A DNA stretch of 64,000 bases from Rhynchobatus australiae (Eukaryota). This document shows positions 10,574 to 64,000 of the stretch, in pieces; within the stretch, counting starts at the first letter, position 1, and every line of letters begins with the position of its first letter. The notes below the pieces were generated by a model. That model did not search any database. It saw only the letters and a list, made by a program, of their open reading frames with translations, and was not told the origin of the DNA. Both the position numbers and the translations under genes were made by a program. The stretch is taken from positions 26,893,926 through 26,957,925 of the forward strand of contig JAUZTB010000118.1 of NCBI GenBank assembly GCA_034780895.1. The letters run 5' to 3'.

Positions 10574-10668
10574 AGCAACAATCTGCTGGAGGAACTCAGC
10601 AGGTCAAGCAGCATCTGTGGGAGGAAAGGAACTGTCAACGTTTTGGGTCGAAACCCTACATCAGGACT
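10574..10668 (-). mobile_element. Short PLE end (family B) with degenerate hammerhead (10634-10667)
   Basis: caacaatctgctggaggaactcagc..; minus strand GUC-CUGAUGUA-GGGU(UUCG)ACCC-AAAA-CG-UU-GAC. Confidence 0.8.
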
Positions 10669-13600
10669 CGCAATATGCTTCACTCACTGCTTGAATTCTC
10701 TCTCTCACCACAAATAGCATGATATGACTGTTGTAGATGAACAGATTGTGGGATAAGAGGAATGTGAGAAAGAAGAACAGGTATGGACATGCTATCATCT
10801 TCAGTGTTCTCTATATCACTGCTGGCTCTGGATCCAATGATGGTCATACTTTCTTTGAGACCAGTAAGTGATGGAAATGGCCATGTCCCTTGCCAATTTG
10901 TTATTGTCTCCTGAAAGAGAGGGAGGGCATTGTGTGGGTGTGTATCTTGCAATGGGTCTGGGGGATTTGCCTGCCATTGTTGAATTAATGGCAATGTGTG
11001 CAAACTGTGAGATGTAGGTGTAATGCTTGTAGCAGTGAGAAGCATGTGAAAATATGGTGCAGTCTATAAATGTTAGGTAAGGTTGACATACTGATGGAGA
11101 TTATTAGGAGGTGAGGGAAGCACAGACAGATGAGTTTGCCTCATGGCCTAAGCAAAAGACAAGACTTGGTGACTACACCACTGTGTACAGGACCTTGGCA
11201 CTTTACTCCTGGATTGTGACCTCCTCCTACTGAAACTTCACAATGGTTGGCTTCCTGTGGATAGAGCACCTTTCTCTTTCTCTTCACATCATCCAATGAA
11301 GAATCTGTGGCAGAGGACAAAAGCTGGGGTGTCCATTCTCATCCAGGGCTTCTTCCAACATGGAGAATGACTTCCACTGACCGCCAGTACCCTAGATGTC
11401 TCCCCATGAGTTCCTGTGAGCCATTGGGCACGGTGGTAGTTTAAAGAGGTAATGACACCTCCCATTTCAGTTATGAGGTATGGCCTCAGTCAGAGCTGCC
11501 TGGAATCAACTGGTGCTCTTCCCCCACAAAATATGATCCCATGGATATCCACCAGGGCACTCAGAAGTCTCAAAGCCAGATAACAAAGTGTAAGCACAGA
11601 CTGTATGTGCAACCTGTACCTAGTCAAAGGACAAAGCTTGACACAGATTGAGATCCCAATGCATGTTTTCCAGTGGCATTCATTAATACTTCCACCCCTT
11701 CCTATGGCGAGCACAACACTATTCTTTGCATGGCAGAGTTAAGTGCTAGTGGTCAACATTACTGCCACAATTCTCCTGTACCGACATGACACAAGTTCGC
11801 TCCACCTTCTGCTGAGTTGAAAGAAACATAACACTAAATAGCCAAGTGGAAGTCATCATTTAGCATGCTGCTCAGCTCTGTCCTGTGGCCTTGCACTTTA
11901 ATGGGCTGCCTCAGCTACTTTTCATTTTCCTCTTCCATCATGTCCAGCAAAATAAGATATAGTAGCGCACAATCATTTCTATGTGAACTGACAGAGTTAA
12001 TTTACACATTAAAATGCCTCTTGGTTGATCCTCTGTTAACTCAGTGACACTTTCATAACAATGCAGTGTTGGTAACAAGGCAAATGTATAATTGTACATG
12101 TTGCCTGTAATTGCTATTTAAAATGCACCCTCCCAAAAAATTAATGTGGCACTTGTGTGCCTTATATTAGTCTTGTCCCATGAAACAAAACTATTCTAAT
12201 GCTCCTTTGATCTTAATGCACTGAAATTCCACACATCAATGCATATTTAAGTATGTTATCCCAACATGGAGTAATTTCACTCATTTTTAAATGCTACAAA
12301 GCAGTTTTATAATTCTAACAAATGCTAACTAATCACTAAGAACATATTAAATACACTTTTAGATAGTAGCTAATATCTGGTTATGGAAGATTACTGAGTC
12401 AAAATGGAACAAGAGAATCACTTATGCTTGCTGGAATTTTGAATTACACAGCAATATCAACACACTTCCAAATCATCTCTTTCAATAATTGCCATAAACT
12501 GCTACAGTCTGAAGAAACACAAGGTAAATTTGGGTAATTTGCTCTCAAGAAAGGACAAACAGAATCTGTCCATTTTTGTTGGAGTGTTAGTAGGGACAGG
12601 AAGTCCATAAACTTAAACAAGCCTGATTTTCCATGGGCTGTCAGTATTTTGACTGCAGTTTCCTTTCTCCATTTCCTTTAGATGAAGCATATGTGGAATG
12701 TGACCCAACTTCCTTCTCACTATATCTATACATTCAGCCTTCACCTTGGCAGTCCTGTGATTTGTCTTTATGTCAAACCATCAATCATAACCCAGGACAC
12801 AATGAGAACATGGAACCTTTGGGATCCTGAATACAGCACACTTCCTTGCACTCCTGAAAAGTTCCCTGTTGGGGGAAGGGCAATCTTAAATCGGTGTGGT
12901 TTTCCATTNNNNNNNNNNGTTTTTCCATTCATCATGTTATCATTACAGCTTCATCCTTTGTGAGACCATCATTTCCATCAACCACCACACTTTAAAGAAA
13001 AGAATTGCAACCCAACAATTCTAAAATATAGCATACGAGTCAATCATGGGATGTCAAATTATTCCTGACAAATGTGTTGCTTTATCAACCTTGAAGACTT
13101 AAAGCCAGAGGAATATGCATGTTAATTTATCAAATGGAAGAACACGACTGATGCATTGTATCACAACCAGAAGTAATCACAGAAATGTAGGACTCAGTCT
13201 AGTAGATGAAGCCAACTACAGGTCCCATACACTGCTACATATCTGCTGTAGTACATTTGTGCTGCTACAGATGTCCTCTGTAAGATACTTTGGAGGAGTG
13301 AGAGTGGGTAGCTGGTGGCATGTCAATTACGGCATGTCTTCCATCTTGTACAACCAATTATAATTTGCGTTATAATCTTTTCATCAATCACCCAAACCTA
13401 ACAAATAGACTGAAACTTTAGTGACTAATCATTGGTTGTCTTGCTCAAGAAATAGCACCAGAAACTTTGGACTTAATTTCAACTACAACCTATTAACTAT
13501 CAGGTTTAACCAAATTAATATATACTGTATTCAGTTGCATAGCAATTCCAGTTTGGTGGATGAAGTATTAAAGAATGGCTTCCTTACCAAGTTGAGGGGC

Positions 13601-16600
13601 TGTTAGTCAATTTAATTTTGCAAATATTAGTTCATTTTTCCTACAATAGAGGTTTTTCTGCCAATAAAGAAAATGTGCTATGTGCAAATGCAGATTCCTG
13701 ATATGAAACATGGGTTGTACTTTATTATATCTATCAGAGTGTCCAAATAAGGATTCTGGTTTCATTCATATACGGTGTTGAAGATCAGTCCAGTGGAAGA
13801 ACTACTGAACTTCTCTCAGTTTGGGGCCTTTACCTTGTCATTAAAAAAAAGATAACAGTGGAAAATTGAAACTGTTCCAATGCATGAATTTAATTCACAT
13901 CAGTCTTCAGTTCAGATACTAAACACAATTTCAGTCTTCACTATACCAAATGAAGGTGAATCTCAACCAGCAGCACCTAGAGATAAGACATGTATTACAG
14001 CATGTAAGGAAAATTGATTTTGGTGATTGCCTTCAGATATATCAAAACAGTAAGGGGGANNNNNNNNNNNNNNNNNNNNNNNNNNNNNNNNNNNNNNNNN
14101 NNNNNNNNNNNNNNNNNNNNNNNNNNNNNNNNNNNNNNNNNNNNNNNNNNNNNNNNNNNNNNNNNNNNNNNNNNNNNNNNNNNNNNNNNNNNNNNNNNNN
14201 NNNNNNNNNNNNNNNNNNNNNNNNNTTGTAATCTCACTGCTTAAAAATGCAGGTTTTCTGGTGCTGATGCAATTTGCTCACTTGATACCTTGTGATTTTT
14301 TAAAAATGTGTTGCTATTCATTTCTAATCGTTACAATTGCTCATTAACCTGACTGGCCAATTAACTACATATACAGACAGAGCAAGCAGTGTACTGATTT
14401 TGCTTGTTGCTGTTTCGATGAGTGCGACAGACCTATTCTGTATGCTCTAATTAGTNNNNNNNNNNCAAACTGCCACCAACTACCTCATGCTGCTTGATTA
14501 ACGGCCATGCCACAGATGTCAGACAGAGACCATGACTATAGATTCCCATCAAGATTCAGACTTCCTTTATACTGACAGATGAAAGAGCTCTAAGTAGTTA
14601 GAAAACTATAAGCCATGTCCTGTCTTTCTCTATGCATTCTGCCACGTTTGCATCACTTTGAAAAGAAACTACCAGTTTCAGCAGATCAGTATTTCAGAGA
14701 CTAATATACCTGCATACAAAAGCATTAAACGAACACTTATAGTTGCCCCAAGTTAATAGACTAACCCCACATACATTCACTAAGATGCCTTTGTTTAAAT
14801 AGATAGCGGAATTATATTTTGGATCAATTGACACAAGGATTGTAACAGGGTGCTATCAAAATTTTATTTGTTTAATTGACTTTTTCCCACGATAATATGT
14901 TCTGTAAAGTATTACCCTCTGATTTTTGTGGCTTGGTTCTTTTGCAATTAAAGATTACAGGGTGAAATATTAGCAAATACATCTATGCTCAGAGTAGCTA
15001 TGGATCTCAGAGCAACATTATTTATTATTAAAGCTGAATGATACCTGGAATCTTGAATGTCGCTTCTTGTAAGCAACTTTATCACACTTTTATTCAATGA
15101 AATGACTGCAGAAGTAGTAAAGAGATGCAGCTTATCCCACTACAGGCCTGACATAGCTTTGCTGTCCACAATTCATCTGTAGAAAAATTCCAGGTTTTTC
15201 TTGGAACACAAGCCACTTAACAATGCCATAACAGAGCATATGGTCATATGATATTGTACCGCAGATATATAAATCACAACGCAGGCAGCAACAGCAAAGC
15301 GAGAAGGGTTACACAACTGATGTTATTTATACTAAGGGTCACCACCTATTAAAGTATCTGGTGCTAAAAAGATCCATGTTAATTCATTCTTCCCATTATC
15401 TTTCCCCTTTTCTTGGCTCATATGTAATGATAAATACTTATTTTGTTGATTTATTCTGACCTTTCTATTTATGTTCAATTTATTTTTTGCTGTGTAAGTG
15501 CAAAGGAATAAGTATCTAACACTGTAAAGCAGATGAGCAATAAAAGCTTTCTTCTAAATTCATATCTCTAGAGCATTATATAGAATCCAAGTGTCTTCAT
15601 CCAATTCCTTTATATTCACTTTGCTTTCAAGCTCATAAACTACAATTCTGTGTTATATGTACAAAGATAACTATTAAAATTGTTTACTTACAAAAGTGGC
15701 ATGACATTTTCACTTTTTATTCCTTAACTATTCTTAATGTAAATGCAGAAATTACAGATGATGGATGCATATTTAAAATATACCACATACCGGTCTGACC
15801 AATTAAAGTTCATTTCTAACACACTGCAATTTTCTATTTCATGCTAGATCTGTTAACGCTATTTCAGGTATATTGCAAAACTACCAGCTGCTTTGTATGA
15901 TTAACTTACATTTATTTCTAAGCTATACACTTCAGACAATTTGATAACAGCACTTTTTGTTTCAATAATTTGTACAAGGGATATGAACATTGCTACTAAT
16001 GCCACTTCTGATAGCTTCTAGTTAATTTAAAATAGAGAAAAACTGAACTGACTGCCATTTAGTTTGACAGGGCTCTCTATAATGAAAGATTGTTTACATG
16101 TTACAGAGAAATTATGAATGTGTAAATTATACTTTATTATGATTATACTAAATCTAGACACAATAGAAATTTTCACTGTTGAATTTAAATTGGTCATGGC
16201 TCATGAAAAGAATAGAATTTGTGTCTACATGAAATATATAAGACCGCTTCAATCTGTTAAACAAACTTAAAATTTGAATTTGGAATGCTTAATTCTGAAG
16301 TAATAATGTTTTGGGGAGGGTATAGAAAGAAGCATAAAGAATTTTTTCCTTACATTTCTGCTCTTATTGGTTATATGTTGTTAAAACTGTACTAGGAATG
16401 ACAAGGCAGTAGTTCTCATCAGAGACCTAATTTATTGCAGTTTGAGGTCTTGCTTCCATGAATTGATTCTGCTGTGGCTATGAAACATAATCTTGCTTTT
16501 TGGGAAATAAAAACCTCCTAATATCAAAGTTTTCAATAACAAGGTAGCATTGCATTTGGTGTTTATGATCATTTTCTAGGAAGAAATTGATCGCACGTTA

Positions 16601-18958
16601 AATCCCACCAGATAAGAATAGAACATGATCAGAAGAGCTTCTAACACATGAAACTACTTCTGATGGCATTCAAACAAAACCACTAAATACTTATGCTTTC
16701 TAGAATTTAAAAAAACATAAGCAAAAGAAGCATTGATGATTCCTGAACATGAAGCATCCATCAATAGAAAAGATGAGGTTTCAAATCAGGGAGTTGTTGA
16801 TATAAGTTGGCGTAGAGATGGGAGAAAATCTGAGTATATCTTACAGCATAATACATTCAATAACCTCATATTACAGCTTCAGGGTTAATTTATGTTCTTT
16901 GCAGAACCATACCTGGGTGACTAATAGAGGGGCGGTGTGCCAAAATTACCTCATTCACTCAACTAAAGTTCCCTTTGAAAAAGGACCATGTGCAGCTCTG
17001 TCTTAAAGTCATTTGGTCTTCTCATTTCTCTGGCAGTATTGTCTGCAAATCTTCTTGCAGAGTTCAACATACCGTGCATGAGGTTTTAGATGAATACAGT
17101 ATTTTCATTCTGAAAATCTGACTATTTTAAGGGAAATTTAATCAAAAATATTAAAAGGGAAAATTGCAAGGAGTGGCTACAAATAAATATGACAGAAAAG
17201 GACGGAGAAGCAAAACCGTTAATTATTACGTTGTGGCTTTTGTGGTTGGTGTTCAGATGTTCAAAAATGAGCACTTGAGGTTATTCTGGCAAAGAGACAT
17301 TGTTTAAGCAATAATGGACATATGCATGCACTTTATTGCAAACTTAATGTTGAAGCCATCAATTTGTCATGGATATTGCTTTCTCAATTTACCATGGCTG
17401 TGCCCATCAAGTCAGCGACTCTGTTCAATCATATTTCAAGGAGTGTTTACACTTTAGTCATTTTATTAAATGCTGAATTACGGTGGAATGCTATGCCAAA
17501 TCCTGTAATGTTTATATAGATCTTGCCGATCAATACTTAAGTCGTACCATTTAATGACAGGAAGACATCATTAATTGACAATCTGAGTATTGTTTCAGCA
17601 CGTGAGAGCAGTGACAGGGAGATTCCTCAGCACTACTAAGAATTACTCTTATTTCATTATTTGTACATAAATCATATTTACCGACCACCAAGGTATTTAT
17701 ACATTTATGACAAATTCTGTGAAGGAACAAAATAAATAATTTATTAGATTTTCAAATAATTTAAGCACCATCAATAAGGATGCCTATTGTAGATTTATTG
17801 AGTAGCACAGCACAGAAATGGGCCCTCAAATCCACCATACACATGTCGACTGTTGTACCTTCTATACTAATCCCATTTGCCTGGATTGGATGTTGGATGT
17901 TTCTCAGTCTCCCAGCCATCCCCTTTTATTTTGTGATGAAACTTTGAACCAATGGTGTCTGAGGACAAATGTTGGTGCATCATACTGATAGTCCAGGTGA
18001 AGATCAAAGGCAATCTCAGAGCTCGTGACAATTCAGTTGTGTATCCTTCCCCTCTAACTCACACACTATCACCAATGTTGCATTTGAAGGAAATGAGTGC
18101 TGGGGTCTTAACGTGATTCACAAAATTGATTGTAAATTATGTGCAGTTGTTGGCTGTCAAGTTGAGAGATCATCAGTATGCCTGCTTAAGTTTACTTTGA
18201 AATCACTGCAATGGACAACTTAAGTCATCTGTCCCTTCCATGGAGAAAGGCTGTTAAACTGATGGAGAAAATTCAACCCTGGAGTTGTTCATGGAAATGT
18301 CTGACTCTAGAATCAAACCAAATGATGCATGGGATCAGAGAATGGGGAGATTATTCAGCCCAGTGAGTCTGTACTAGCTCTTTTGGAAGTGTAATCTCAC
18401 TCCCCACTCTTTTCCTGTATCCTTGCAGTTGTTTTTTCACCAGGCATTTGCCTGATTCCTTTTCGTTGGTTATGCAACACCTGCTGACAGAAGGTCAGTT
18501 AATTGTGGAGAAGGGTTTTGACTCATCTTTTAAAAACCTACAGGAATGTTAGCTGTCTTCTTTCACAAATAATTGTACTCTTAAGTTCTTCTGATGACAA
18601 CGTTTAGCAGCTATGTGTTCCCACCACTTCAGCAGTCAAGACTCCCATAGCAATGCAACAACACATGGAACACTAACAGTGTGATTAGTAATGCCGTTGT
18701 GAACTCTTGTTTATCCTACAATTAATGAAGCAATGGGAGCCATATTAGGATTCTCATCACAACCAGAGCCTCATTATGTTTTGGAGTGGGGAAGGGAAGT
18801 GGTATTCACTACTGTAAAGGCAAAAATAGGCTAAGTTACCTGTTGGTTTCTCACCAACAGTTTTATGGTATGAAAGGCTTAGAGGATCAATGGTGTGCTA
18901 ATGCTATGAATCTGTAATTGTATATATCTAGACAAAGAGTGACAGGAATTGTGCCCAC

Positions 18959-19044
18959 CTGCTGCTGGTGTAGAAAGGCTGGGTCCCTTGAGCTGAGTCC
19001 CACAAATTGCCGGTTGGCAGGGGGTGTACCTGAACCTGTATAGG
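18959..19044 (-). CDS. NFIB: NFIB exon 10 equivalent, 86 nt: (A/T)[28 protein letters not shown]
   Basis: Acceptor ctttgtctttaccag, donor gtgggc. Matches recalled NFIB [28 protein letters not shown]. Phase 1-0. Confidence 0.95.
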
Positions 19045-19194
19045 CTGGTAAAGACAAAGAGAAGTTAGAATCAATTCAATAGGCCTTTTGCAAACTGTTA
19101 TATATAAACCTTTCATTGCATTATTAAAGCAAACTGTTTTATATGGCAAACTTCTCAGATATGGAGGCAGAATATATTTTTAAGTTAAAAATAA

Positions 19195-19320
19195 AATAGA
19201 AATGCTTGAAGTATTCAGCAAGTCAGATAGCTCCACAGATATTCCTTGATTTGCAGAGTACTTCCAGCACTTGTTTTACTTCAGATTTCGAGCATCTGCA
19301 GCATTTTGCTTTGGATTTTT
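19195..19320. mobile_element. Old decayed fold-back PLE end just upstream of the exon 10 acceptor
   Basis: aaatgcttgaagtattcagcaagtcag ... ttgcagagtacttccagca..tcagatttcgagcatctgcagca: an inverted arrangement like the 42873 copy. Confidence 0.55.
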
Positions 19321-20559
19321 TTTAAAAACTCAGCAAAAAATAGCAACTGGTACCTATGCCTGTCTCAATACTTGGGGTAAAACAGCTTAAGTATTGCTCC
19401 TGGCAATACCAACATAAGAATTCATTCAATGAGACATTTCTTGGTCTGCCTTTTTAAGAGGAGACATTAATTTTCTCTAATGAGTTAACATCTGCTAAAA
19501 GAAATCACATACAGTGGAATGCCATGTGATCAGTTCAATAATTAGCTTAACAAAATGAATCTTGTTTCTTTACAATGTGTTCTGGCTTAATTCTGAAGAT
19601 TGCCCTTTGCCCTAGATTTCAATGGATATTATCATGTTTTTATCACTGTCAGATCAAATTAGCAAATTTCAGTGCATTGACAGCTTTTGGTTCTTGGAAT
19701 ACAGGGAGTGGTCCAATCCAACATCTAAAGGTTAAAGTAATTGCCTGACTGTTTGAGTTAACTGCTGGAGACATACCATTAGAGTGGAGCAAGGAACATC
19801 TCTTCTTTCAGGAAAACCATCTTTCTGAATAAACTGACAGCTGTCATCTTTTTAAGGATGGAGAGCATAGGGTGTAAGTAGATAAAATTTCGTGATCTCG
19901 GTGAAAAATAGTATGAATCCAACCTTTGAACAGAACCCCATTTTGAAAGTTATCTCTAGCCAGATATGTTTAGAGGTGATGTTTGGTAGCAACTGCACAT
20001 TCTATTGTACTTTCCAATATTCATTTGATTAATTTCAATAGACTGTATTTTATAATTTCAGTAGGGCACTCTACTACCACTGAACAGTTCAGCTTTGCTA
20101 ATTTCTAAGCAATCATCCCACATTATTTGAAAGTTTGCTCTAGTGCCAGGAGAGCAAAGCACCTGTCAGGAACATCTTCCTTTCACACTTGTAATCTTTG
20201 ATTAGTTTATGATTTTGGACTTCAGCTGGCTTTTCAGTTTTAATTGGTGGTTTTACATCAAAGTAATTTTTCAAAAGGTATTGGTGCAAAAAGTGCCGAA
20301 ATAAATGGGTATTCCAAGACTAGGGAGTAATTTTTAACAAAGATGACTTAAATACAGATTGTTTTTGTGTAACCCTCTATTCAGATTGTAAGTGTGACCA
20401 GAGTTTCTGGTTGTCTACACTTTTAATTTTCTATCCCACTCTGATTTTCTTCAATGTACCACACTGTTGAGTAAAGTTCAATGTAAGCTTGAGAAATGGT
20501 ACAATATTTTTCACCTATGTTTAACCCAATCTCCTAAATACAACATTAAGTTCAACAGT

Positions 20560-20850
20560 TTAGGTAATGATTTTGCTGTTTCACCTCGACCAGACCTTTC
20601 TTCTATTGTTTTGCACATTCTATTACCGCCCCCCCTTAACTTGTACAATCAACAATTTTATCATTTAATTGCTCCTCCTTCTACCCCATTCTAGGTCTGC
20701 CCTTTTCTTCCTCCATCTTTCTCTGCACCTTAAAACATGCTTTCTCTCTGATCTTTTTTCACTTCTGGTGAAGGGTCACTGATCTGGAATGTTACCTCTG
20801 TCTCTCTCTAACCTGCTAAGTGATTTCTAGCAGTTTCAGTTTTTACCTTA
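20560..20850 (+). mobile_element. Old PLE 3' end with decayed hammerhead (20761-20800)
   Basis: Pyrimidine-rich tract followed by ttCTGGTGAAGGGTCACTGATCTGGAATGTTacc and acctgctaagtgatttctagca, homologous to the other PLE ends. Confidence 0.6.
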
Positions 20851-22465: not shown

Positions 22466-22634
22466 TGGATGATGGGGATGATGATGCCTCACCTTCGGTT
22501 GATGTAGTGATGGGTTTAGTGTCTGAAGACATGGCCAGGGTCACCGGTCTGGACATGCCATGATGGGGTGAGGGAGCCAGTACTGATGTAAAATGACCAG
22601 GCACTTTGCCCACTACTTGACCACTACTATTTGG
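22466..22634 (-). CDS. NFIB: NFIB exon 9 equivalent, 169 nt (142 nt with the internal donor, ending at 22493): [47 protein letters not shown][GEASSSPSS]
   Basis: Acceptor tgttcccttccacag, donors gtgagg and gtaagt. [19 protein letters not shown] is NFIB-like rather than NFIA/C/X. Partly visible in ORF 22452..22718. Confidence 0.96.
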
Positions 22635-22935: not shown

Positions 22936-23033
22936 CAACAAACAATCTGCTGGAGGAACTCAGCGGGTCAGGCAGCATCTGTGGGGGGCAAGGGATTGTC
23001 GACATTTTGGGTTTCAACCCTGCATCAGGACTC
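22936..23033 (-). mobile_element. Short PLE end (family B) with degenerate hammerhead (22998-23031), 300 bp upstream of the exon 9 acceptor
   Basis: Minus strand GUC-CUGAUGCA-GGGU(UGAA)ACCC-AAAA-UG-UC-GAC. Weak TSD catacNNNtgtcca at 22924-22937 and 23040-23053. Confidence 0.8.
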
Positions 23034-29929: not shown

Positions 29930-30058
29930 CACTGTGTCCTGGGATGCCAGGGTGATGATGCGGTGGGAAAGTACTCAGTCGTGGTGATGAACCTTGTGGA
30001 GATGTGGGGTCACTATATATTGGCTTCTCGGGCTTCTTCATTGTAGGAGATGACATTT
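29930..30058 (-). CDS. NFIB: NFIB exon 7 equivalent, 129 nt: (E)[42 protein letters not shown]
   Basis: Acceptor ctatgacttggtag, donor gtaatt. Matches recalled [49 protein letters not shown]. Phase 1-1. Confidence 0.95.
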
Positions 30059-32900: not shown

Positions 32901-34589
32901 ATTACTTTGCTCATCACAAGTTGTGAATTGAATTACAGACAAGTGGGAGCATGTAGTCAAAGAAAATATCTGCTGTGTGAATGTATGTCTGGGCTGTGAC
33001 ATCCAGTTAGAACAATGTTTTTGTTAATCTTCCTCTCCTTTGCTTTCATCTCCATCAGATATTGGATAACACAAGCACAAGCACTGTATCACTTAGCACC
33101 ACTGACTCAGGAAAATGAGCTCATTCATCTTAACCCAGAATTTGATTATAAAAGTAACTATGAATTTGTTCCGTTGTATGAAAATTAAGTGCAGCATGTT
33201 AAACTTTATCGAGAACAATCTTCACGGTAAAAATATTTGACTACATTCAAGTCATTGTTTAAAGCTGTAGCCAAGGCACATCACATATGAGAAGAACCAA
33301 GTATTATATGTCTGCACATGGTGAAAAGAATATCAAATGGCTTATTTTTAAAAAAACTTTTATCCATTAGAAAAGTTATGGTTGAAAAAGTCTAATCGGT
33401 TTTTGCCTCAACTACATTCTAACTAAAGGAATTCAATGTGCAGTGAGTTGTTCCATGTGCAATGTATGAACAGAAAACAATTTCATTGTGCTTGTTTACC
33501 TCCTCCTGACTTCTCCTCCATTCCAGCTTTCTGTTTCATTTATCCTCATAAACTCATCTACTTTCCTTTTGGAAGCACTTAAACCATTTTCCACAAACAC
33601 TTCCTGGGGCAGCAGTTTTCACATAATTACCACTCTCTGAGTCAAGATCATTTGTCCTGAGTTACCTATTAAACCGATCAACAAGTTTCTTGGAGTCCTA
33701 ATTTTCCAAAACAAAAATATTCTCTTTGCACACTGCCAAGCCAATCCATTCATAATTTTAAAGATCTTCATTAGATTCCCTCAAAGTTTTCTATTTTCCA
33801 AAAAAAAATCAAACTCACTCAGTAGTTATATCCTCTTAGTTCTGGTACCATCAATGCATATCTTTTATTAATTTTTTCTAGCATCTCTTTGTCCTGTAGG
33901 TGGTGTGGAGATGAGCTACAGGCTGGTCCCAACCCACATTATGTACAATTTTAACACTACATATAATTTAATACTCCAAGAAGTGTACCCTAATTTATTA
34001 CAATGTTTTGCTTAATTTTAACCTTGCTTAACCTTGACCTCATGCTCTTCTATCCCATCCAGTTTATTTCTCAACCAAATCAAACTTTCACATGTTACAT
34101 TCTCTTAGTTCTGGTACCATCGATGATTCCTTTAATGAATTGCATTATATTTTCTTGTGCAATCATTCGTTAGTCACTGCCCAGTGCAGGTTTTCTGAAT
34201 GGATGGCTGGGATAAGATAAAAAAAAGAGTTCCCACTGCATTCCTCAATAAATGAAGTTTCATTCATCTTTACAGGATCAATTATAAATGCAGAAAAGCA
34301 TCATCATAACTTAAAGCAATTGATAAGTTCACAAAACTGATCACAAGTATTCATTTAAAGGAACAAAAAACCTATTGCTCTCAAAATCCAGTGCGTGTTC
34401 ATATGTGGAAAACATGAGCACATTTAGTTGGAGACACAAGAGATTCTACAGATGCTGGAAATCTGNNNNNNNNNNNNNNNNNNNNNNNNNNNNNNNNNNN
34501 NNNNNNNNNNNNNNNNNNNNNNNNNNNNNNNNNNNNNNNNNNNNNNNNNNNNNNNNNNNNNNNNNGAAAACATGAGCACATTTAGTTGG

Positions 34590-34750
34590 AGACACAAGAG
34601 ATTCTACAGATGCTGGAATCTGGAGCAACACTCACAAAATGCTGGAGGAACTCAGCATGTTAGGCAGCATCTATGGACGGAAATAAACAGTCGACATTTC
34701 GGGTCAAGACCCTTCGTCAGAACTGGAAGGGAAGAGGGTAGAAGCCAGAA
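34590..34750 (-). mobile_element. 5'-truncated Penelope-like element end (family A) containing the hammerhead
   Basis: Shares gacacaagagattct..gatgctggaatctgga..acaaaatgctggaggaactcagca with the copies at 27976 and 63801. Confidence 0.8.
34688..34725 (-). ncRNA. Minimal type-I hammerhead ribozyme motif with intact core, inside a PLE end
   Basis: Minus strand reads CAGUU-CUGACGA-A-GGGU(CUUG)ACCC-GAAA-UG-UC^GACUG. Stem I has 5 bp, stem II 4 bp, core CUGANGA/GAAA/GUC, and a vestigial stem III (AUGU, probably from ACGU). Confidence 0.75.
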
Positions 34751-35419
34751 CAATCTACAACAAATTGCAGAAGTCACACATAACACGCTGATCTTTCTTT
34801 TAAAAGCGTCACCTGCTTGGAGAAACAAGGCACAGTGGTGTCACTCAACTAGAGGCCTTTCATCATTCAGTCCACCCGTTTTACCAAATAATCACAGCAG
34901 ATCAGGACTGTTTAAATGGTACAACCTGTCCGATGACACCACACCTGGGAGAATCCACCTCCCAGTAGTATAGCAAGGGACTGGCCTTGTTGGAAAGTGG
35001 ATAGAAGGTGACCAGCTTGGTGAGCAACTAGTGACTCCACCAACCTGGATACCCCTCAACCAGAAGTTACATGAATAACTTCCAAGATGTGAACTGGGCA
35101 ATCTGGTACATCATGTTAGAATGTGGAACTTCTTCCCACAAGCAGAAGGCAGAGATGAATATGTTTTGTCTATAGCATTAGATGAAGTAAGGTGGATTCG
35201 ATGTGTTGTATAAGCAGCACGTAAATCTGTGGAGGCACAAAGTCCCTTTTAATGTTGCAGTTTCTATGCATTTCCACGTGGTGCNNNNNNNNNNNNNNNN
35301 NNNNNNNNNNNNNNNNNNNNNNNNNNNNNNNNNNNNNNNNNNNNNNNNNNNNNNNNNNNNNNNNNNNNNNNNNNNNNNNNNNNNNNNNNNNNNNNNNNNN
35401 NNNNNNNNNNNNNNNNNNN

Positions 35420-46487: not shown

Positions 46488-46606
46488 CTTGATCCCTTTC
46501 ATGCCATGTTCTGCTGACACTTGTAGGTGAGCTGGGAGATGGATAGAATTCTCCAGCTGGACTGGTGTCTATGCTGTCATCAATAGAGATGGTCTTAGGC
46601 CGTTTG
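46488..46606 (-). CDS. NFIB: NFIB exon 6 equivalent, 119 nt: [39 protein letters not shown]
   Basis: Acceptor tttattttccag, donor gttagt. Matches recalled [44 protein letters not shown]. Phase 2-1. Confidence 0.96.
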
Positions 46607-55630: not shown

Positions 55631-55757
55631 ACTCTATCAGGCATCCATTGTTGCTAGCCATTGGACGTTACCAAATGGCAAATTTTCAGGCTAGAGGAAG
55701 TTGTACAATCAAACAAAAAGGGGGAAGACAACAGCTTCCATCACATCCAACTGGGAG

Positions 55758-56113
55758 CAACAAACATTCTGCTGGAGGAACTCAGTGGGTTGAGCAGCAT
55801 CGGTGGGAGGCAAGAAATTGTCAATGTTTCAGGTCGCAACCCTGCATCAGGACTCAGGATGGACAGGCGAGATGGCCCGCTTAGAGAGGAGAAGGGGAGT
55901 GGCAAGAAAGGATTCCGAGGCCTCGGAATACCTTGTAATCCCCTTCTCCTCTCTAACTGGTCATCTCTTCTCTCCACTCTCAGTCCTGACGCAGGGTTTC
56001 GACCCAAAACGTTGACAATTCCTTTCCTCCCACAGATGCTGCTTGACCCACTGAGTTCCTCCAGCAGATTGTTTGTTGCTCTCTATTCCAGCATCTGCAG
56101 TCTCCTGTATCTG
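55758..56113. mobile_element. ~330-bp palindromic (head-to-head) PLE end pair (family B) with two hammerhead-like motifs
   Basis: Arms are inverted about a perfect centre attccgagg|cctcggaat (55912-55929). TSD-like catccaaNNgggag at 55744-55757 and 56114-56127 (12/14 match). Confidence 0.85.
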
Positions 56114-63800: not shown

Positions 63801-63961
63801 AAGACACAAGAGATTCTGCAGGTGCTGGAATCTGGACTAACACACACAAAATGCTGGAGGAACTCAGCAGGTCAGCCTGATGAAGGGTCTCAACCCGAAA
63901 GATTGACTGTTTATTTCCCTCCATAGATGCTGCCTGACCTGCTGAGTTCCTCCAGCATTTT
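63801..63961 (+). mobile_element. Fold-back PLE end (family A) with hammerhead motif and 11-bp TSD
   Basis: Perfect 32-bp inverted repeat at 63844-63875 / 63934-63965. CTGATGA-A-GGGT(CTCA)ACCC-GAAA-GA-TT-GACTG at 63877-63909. TSD gtgttaacact at 63790-63800 and 63962-63972. Confidence 0.85.
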
Positions 63962-64000
63962 GTGTTAACACTGAGATTATTTTTTTCTTAATTTTGAATG

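Follow-up and report, generated by a model that had tools for sequence, protein, structure and literature searches.

Does a hammerhead ribozyme motif lying in sense orientation inside an intron of NFIB cut the nascent transcript of its host gene? The question is raised by a 38-nt motif in the genome of Rhynchobatus australiae (assembly GCA_034780895.1, contig JAUZTB010000118.1), within a window of 64,000 nucleotides (positions 26,893,926 to 26,957,925 of the forward strand) that is the whole stretch of DNA analysed here. We propose, with a probability of roughly 0.9, that the motif is the minimal hammerhead of a Penelope-like element (PLE) end whose 5'-truncated insertion in the NFIB intron measures about 165 nt, and that it is likely inactive and neutral there.

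The NFI exons read on the minus strand, which places the motif in sense to the gene, and Pfam assigns CTF_NFI, NfI_DNAbd_pre-N and MH1 to them. The top PDB score of the DNA-binding exon goes to a longer NFIA chain; the exon carries NFIB-type letters at the positions where the PDB paralogues NFIA, NFIX and NFIC differ in the printed PDB alignments. Strand and letters together bear out the sense orientation in NFIB that a preliminary description of this DNA had claimed. The host intron is 16,429 nt long; 11.8 kb separate the motif from the upstream exon and 4.6 kb from the downstream exon. Five coding exons were located upstream of the motif (Table 1). The same description had spoken of intron 6. 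The intronic position in NFIB stands; the number belongs to what we take to be the human numbering of NFIB, which requires a micro-exon 3 that was not located in the searched NFI locus. One candidate for this micro-exon, near extended coordinate 78,847, was rejected, no splice-site pair there fitting the reading phase.

Table 1. Features at the NFIB locus (window coordinates unless marked as extended).
Feature	Coordinates	Strand	Basis or remark
NFI exon 1	near 226,069 (extended window coordinates)	-	
NFI DNA-binding exon	near 220,600-220,059 (extended coordinates)	-	
NFI exons	57693-57625, 51991-51875	-	
NFIB exon upstream of host intron	46488..46606	-	CTF_NFI, E 2.3e-12
NFIB exon downstream of host intron	29930..30058	-	CTF_NFI, E 4.6e-7
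NFI exon	28873-28686	-	
Two further NFI exons	near 22,600 and 19,000	-	
Last coding NFI exon	near -33,855 (extended coordinates)	-	
End of a Penelope-like element, 5'-truncated: pLTR remnant plus 3' extension	34587..34753, approximate	-	repeat depth, identity
Minimal type-I hammerhead motif	34688..34725	-	sequence reading, structure descriptor, folding
Stem I 5' strand; CUGACGA; extra A	34725-34721; 34720-34714; 34713	-	
Stem II with loop; GAAA	34712-34701; 34700-34697	-	
U15.2/G16.2; UC; stem I 3' strand	34696-34695; 34694-34693; 34692-34688	-	
Position 15.2	34696	-	U for commoner C (CpG-type change), breaks ACGU helix III palindrome
53-nt duplicate flanking 100-N gap 34466-34565	34408..34618	.	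repeat family D16
Nearest other sense copy	22946..23033	-	core broken, A9>C and G12>A
Sense copy	55770..55855	-	core broken, A9>C; inverted-pair arm with 55959-56081
Sense copy	10582..10670	-	core broken, A9>T and G12>A
Antisense copy	63876..63960	+	core letters present, 15.2/16.2 non-palindromic G/A

Read directly on the minus strand, 34725-34688 gives CAGUU CUGACGA A GGGU CUUG ACCC GAAA UG UC^GACUG, letter for letter as the preliminary description had it. Each of the 11 invariant core letters is in place, as is H17; the order CUGANGA...GAAA...UH is that of a type-I hammerhead, and the minimal core spans 34720-34693. Of the 5 bp in stem I, the one adjoining the core is a U.G wobble; stem II, closed by G10.1-C11.1, is 4 bp long; and one additional A stands between A9 and 10.1, as in the minimal hammerheads known as min-HHRs. 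Core residues and both stem lengths thus match what had been described, and the predicted cut at 34693/34692 agrees with the motif layout. To call the motif intact is an overstatement: helix III has zero loop nucleotides between 15.2 and 16.2, and these two positions are U/G, so that the palindrome expected of a dimer helix III is lacking, the commonest form in the genome being the palindromic C/G.

A structure descriptor found one match in the window and matches in 3 of 300 first-order Markov resamples; the motif exceeds chance expectation. Hammerhead covariance models, which had been put forward as a check, lent no support: the Rfam search returned no hammerhead family at gathering score or at E<=10, the latter threshold yielding three weak unrelated matches only. 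The NFIB copy likewise lacks the other features of a canonical hammerhead, a closable helix III and a loop I. Its letters are reproduced in an independently assembled contig of run X1, which covers 34691-35276 with 0 differences and may come from the source sample itself.

The motif is one of very many. Repeat depth falls to single copy at 34757 and numerous contigs stop at 34587-34590, which delimits the insertion; inspection of its flanks revealed no obvious target-site duplication. On a 719-nt stretch, 12,642 to 20,607 contigs per run were found in four runs, nearly all on the repeat part, and a profile search gave 69 matches in 364 kb around the locus. The window itself holds several copies on both strands, including inverted pairs. 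Exact patterns detect at least 4,231 core-intact copies in the genome, 2,909 with the ACGU palindrome and 1,322 with AUGU like the NFIB copy; when stems I and II are also required, 1,133 and 460 remain, respectively (reversed-pattern controls, 0 matches).

Several lines of evidence identify the parent of this repeat as a PLE. The element end is 81-86% identical over 161-165 nt to sequence 3' of GIY-YIG-like matches at three loci (L042, L044 and L051), and at these and two further loci (L006 and L007) the same ribozyme follows a GIY-YIG-like frame at a distance of a few hundred bases, which is the pLTR placement characteristic of min-HHRs. At locus L049, whose 3' end falls in an N gap, RT motifs precede a GIY-YIG-like domain on one strand; at E<=1e-20 its 423-aa frame retrieves 346 homologues, the top three from cartilaginous fishes; RVT_1 is found in many of them and GIY-YIG in some. 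This locus displays the order of RT followed by C-terminal GIY-YIG that marks EN+ PLEs, and both domains are represented among its homologues. The element's own frames score below the curated Pfam cut-offs (GIY-YIG E 0.21, RVT_1 E 0.0012), and the RT frame matched no PDB sequence at E<=1. A CX4CxxC-type linker is present in 9 of 16 loci, which agrees with the CX2-5CxxC-type linker reported between RT and EN in Neptune and Nematis (PMC8557442, available text). Copies that are 5'-truncated with an adjacent inverted pLTR, another EN+ PLE feature, occur at 55755-56081 and 63802-63965, with more inverted pairs at extended coordinates 153138-153331 and 249375-249597; the two pairs in the window have the form of the known Penelope insertion footprint. 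In its domain order, linker, 5'-truncated and inverted pLTR copies and 3' extension the family resembles the Neptune-clade EN+ PLEs, as far as these are described in the text of PMC8557442; unlike them, the NFIB copy has no coding sequence, and the clade is assigned from the linker motif alone. The preliminary description was thus right to see in the motif a minimal type-I hammerhead of Penelope type for which a dimeric fold is needed.

Whether such a motif can cut depends in the first place on helix III. There is no loop between 15.2 and 16.2, and therefore a monomer cannot close this helix; dimers use an ACGU palindrome instead, which the change of C15.2 to U has broken. In the double hammerhead each UH would be cut by the core of the other copy, judging from the topology given in PMC4209133. 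The main text of the same paper reports that cleavage of a single min-HHR was not detectable and that dimers showed low activity only. The NFIB copy is predicted to fold into a rod in which G5-A6-C7-G8 pairs with U15.2-G16.2-U16.1-C17, the probability of the G5:C17 pair being 0.99 in the 38-mer and about 0.76 in a 260-nt context. Because two of the three palindromic copies tested fold into the same rod, the predictions indicate that it is a family trait. The computed energy of the double hammerhead is -10.8 kcal/mol for the NFIB copy, versus -21.8 kcal/mol for two monomers, and -19.3 versus -24.8 kcal/mol for a palindromic copy, folding energies that leave the non-canonical contacts of the core out of account. 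The suggestion that this copy might cut on its own is not supported, given a helix III without a loop and a core predicted to be locked in a rod. Cutting at this site is predicted to need the core of a partner, and the eight other sense copies found in NFIB all have core defects; cutting of NFIB nascent RNA by this copy is therefore unlikely and the copy is likely inert.

On the question of selection, the pattern of decay was compared with that of related sequences. Relative to the majority of 14 copies, the NFIB copy carries 11 changes in 166 columns; ten of the 14 were picked by ribozyme pattern, so that the majority letters in columns 34706 and 34696 are biased. Four of them fall inside the 38-nt motif, in stem I, N7, loop II and 15.2; this excess is not significant (4/38 vs 7/128, p=0.28), and the chance of 12 core letters being spared at such rates is 0.26-0.44. 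The insertion is shared with organism D, in which one contig spans the junction between repeat and flank; it has been retained over a span that corresponds to a flank divergence of about 8%. Thirteen differences to organism D lie in 34697-34875, three in the unique flank and ten in 34700-34756. The repeat part thus differs at 10/57 positions versus 44/529 in the flank (p=0.03), in a comparison with a single relative whose paralogues hide the positions of the ten; up to five of these may be changes of the Rhynchobatus lineage itself, and the core in organism D may be intact. Organism B was left out of the comparison, its two contigs being unjoined: 34635-34720 shows 1 difference in the first, and 34820-35209 shows 10 differences and 5 gaps in the second. 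Organism C gave almost no cover of the unique flank. Within the gene, repeat matches are distributed evenly between the strands (21 sense, 23 antisense; p=0.88). The motif had been thought to be either a selective liability or a regulatory element; the even strand distribution, together with the lack of any sign of constraint on the insertion, favours neither.

We propose the following course of events. In the parent element, two copies would pair through the ACGU palindrome into a double hammerhead, probably with the aid of the element's protein. The solitary NFIB copy, having lost both the palindrome and the ATG at N7, could not close helix III by itself; it would fold into a rod that sequesters the core and leave with the spliced intron, uncut. 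Its unbroken core letters would represent chance survival at 7-10% decay. Some observations run contrary to this reading: the core letters, the GUC cleavage triplet and both stems do survive, the substrate half GUC^GACUG is intact, and the motif is the only whole-core sense copy among nine in the gene and is retained in organism D; the many N gaps in the assembly may also conceal further copies. On balance, the NFIB copy is a decayed member of the PLE minimal hammerheads that lacks the palindrome characteristic of the family. It is neither a canonical hammerhead nor a retrozyme of tandem units, and nothing seen here marks it as an intronic ribozyme that was domesticated.

The best surviving alternative, which we consider improbable, is conditional cleavage in trans, in which the protein of an expressed element would pair the remnant with intact element RNA whose core then cuts the NFIB intron. 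A precedent exists in the PLE hammerhead of Anolis, for which PMC11167929 reports in its available text that there is no cleavage without the element protein; the same source finds that no RNA-seq reads ended at the ribozyme site of the Anolis element itself, which weakens the case. The NFIB copy keeps 131 nt past the former start codon, close to the RT start region of 111-118 nt given for Anolis in that text, and retains its intact substrate half. A heteroduplex of the NFIB copy with intact element RNA, at -15.4 kcal/mol, is computed to be more stable than the homodimer, at -10.8, but it still lies 7.9 kcal/mol above the separate folds (-23.3 kcal/mol). Many motif-identical copies of one variant suggest that a younger subfamily exists, yet identity to the query does not exceed 66-80% in the best matches to the endonuclease domain, many of these have stops, and no intact master element emerged. 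The NFIB repeats, moreover, show no strand bias. If it were true that Penelope remnants lying in sense in introns, the NFIB copy among them, are cut in trans upon expression of element protein and RNA wherever their substrate half is intact, transposon activity would attenuate long developmental genes such as NFIB by way of a protein-assisted ribozyme, at hundreds of cartilaginous-fish loci; we regard this broader proposal as highly improbable. Protein-assisted cutting of host introns would tie transposon expression to the loss of host transcripts, and the present family would make a good test set for it.

Still less probable is that the NFIB copy dimerizes in cis, its partner being another copy on the same pre-mRNA such as might lie concealed in the neighbouring N gap. 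This idea draws on the 53-nt duplicate that flanks the gap and includes the 3' end of the element. End-to-end duplicates, however, flank 12 of 39 gaps of 100 N and none of 95 other gaps, and because of this the 53-nt duplicate is probably an unmerged contig overlap and not a tandem copy. Nor do the visible copies offer a partner. Nine sense copies in NFIB cover the ribozyme and only the motif studied here has a whole core; the other eight, at distances of 11.7-174 kb, each have at least one core defect, in U4, G8, A9, G12 or at further positions, so that cutting together with another sense copy, as the preliminary description had envisaged, finds no support. One-site hybrids with the NFIB copy as the cutting strand are computed at -1.4 to -7.3 kcal/mol, versus -10.9 kcal/mol for its own rod. 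Duplicates at 100-N gaps in this assembly are in general unfit to be read as tandem repeats or target-site duplications. Elsewhere in the genome, core-intact palindromic copies occur as same-strand pairs 76, 371 and 406 bases apart (G000:C1:2828230-2828339, C2:515704-516108 and C64:3329605-3330038); such close pairs are far better double-hammerhead candidates than the NFIB copy.

Least probable of all is a domesticated regulatory ribozyme that tunes NFIB output through competition with splicing, in the manner of the conserved intronic hammerheads that the text of PMC6155905 describes for RECK and other amniote genes. The orientation in sense, the full set of core letters and the retention in organism D are compatible with it, but loop I is absent, helix III is unclosable, two changes in the NFIB copy make helices I and III less stable, divergence from organism D is greater in the repeat part than in the flank (one relative, with the core positions hidden), and at least 1,133 better-preserved copies are dispersed through the genome.

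The motif resembles several known systems. Like the min-HHRs, it combines type-I topology, a helix I of 4-5 bp, an extra nucleotide between 9 and 10.1, G10.1-C11.1 and no loop III with thousands of mostly single copies per genome and opposite-strand pairs close by. It differs from the Schistosoma min-HHR families in its helix II of 4 bp, compared with 7-8 bp, and from min-HHRs generally in the loss of the 15.2-16.2 palindrome. The min-HHR motif was described in 2014, with thousands of copies in vertebrate genomes, and is in this sense already known; the consulted passages of PMC4209133 make no mention of cartilaginous fishes. As in PAc, the Poseidon element of Anolis carolinensis (PMC11167929, available text), a minimal ribozyme lies over the start codon, with some 110-130 nt between it and the 3' limit of the insertion. 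PAc, in contrast, was assayed as full element RNA with protein, according to that text, whereas the NFIB copy is a remnant, decayed and isolated, with ACG replacing ATG, and its family belongs to another clade by the linker motif. With the amniote intronic hammerheads (RECK and others) it has in common the type-I form and the location in an intron of a vertebrate. The accessible part of PMC6155905 presents the amniote hammerheads as conserved throughout amniotes and draws them with tertiary contacts; the NFIB copy is a minimal, high-copy remnant. The non-LTR retrozymes, in the portion of bioRxiv 10.64898/2026.07.22.740005 available to us, are likewise type-I hammerheads derived from PLE pLTRs and are reported in one chondrichthyan genome; they are tandem units with at least two complete ribozymes, and the NFIB copy is solitary. 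Among the papers found, mostly as titles and abstracts whose supplements may list shark or ray families, none dealt with this family in sharks or rays or with the NFIB locus. In one hammerhead paper the word 'shark' referred only to the shape of the motif.

As found, the NFIB copy matters little, being one worn copy of a known motif. It does serve as a warning: cores that look intact and lie in sense are to be expected many times per genome, and helix III together with the availability of a partner decides whether such a core can cut.

Copies of the family around the locus also fall into distinct core variants. One has A for U at position 4 (CAGAUGA) and accounts for 625 exact-pattern copies in the genome and 10 of 33 local copies, for example at 67440, 115588, 159348 and 182839 of the extended window; a subfamily may thus have spread despite its non-canonical core, which would fit ribozyme cleavage being dispensable for insertion. 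Another, with C at position 9 (CUGAUGCA), is seen in 7 of 33 local copies, among them 23033, 55855 and 55981 in the window and 184168 and 208377 in extended coordinates, and is probably another subfamily. A third combines CUGAAGA with loop CCUG and a GUU triplet in many genome copies with identical letters, suggesting a younger subfamily with a perfect motif. Finally, three gene models from rays or skates that bear the names of host genes (P0035, P0059 and P0060) are 59-69% identical to the element RT and are probably gene predictions that took in repeat sequence.
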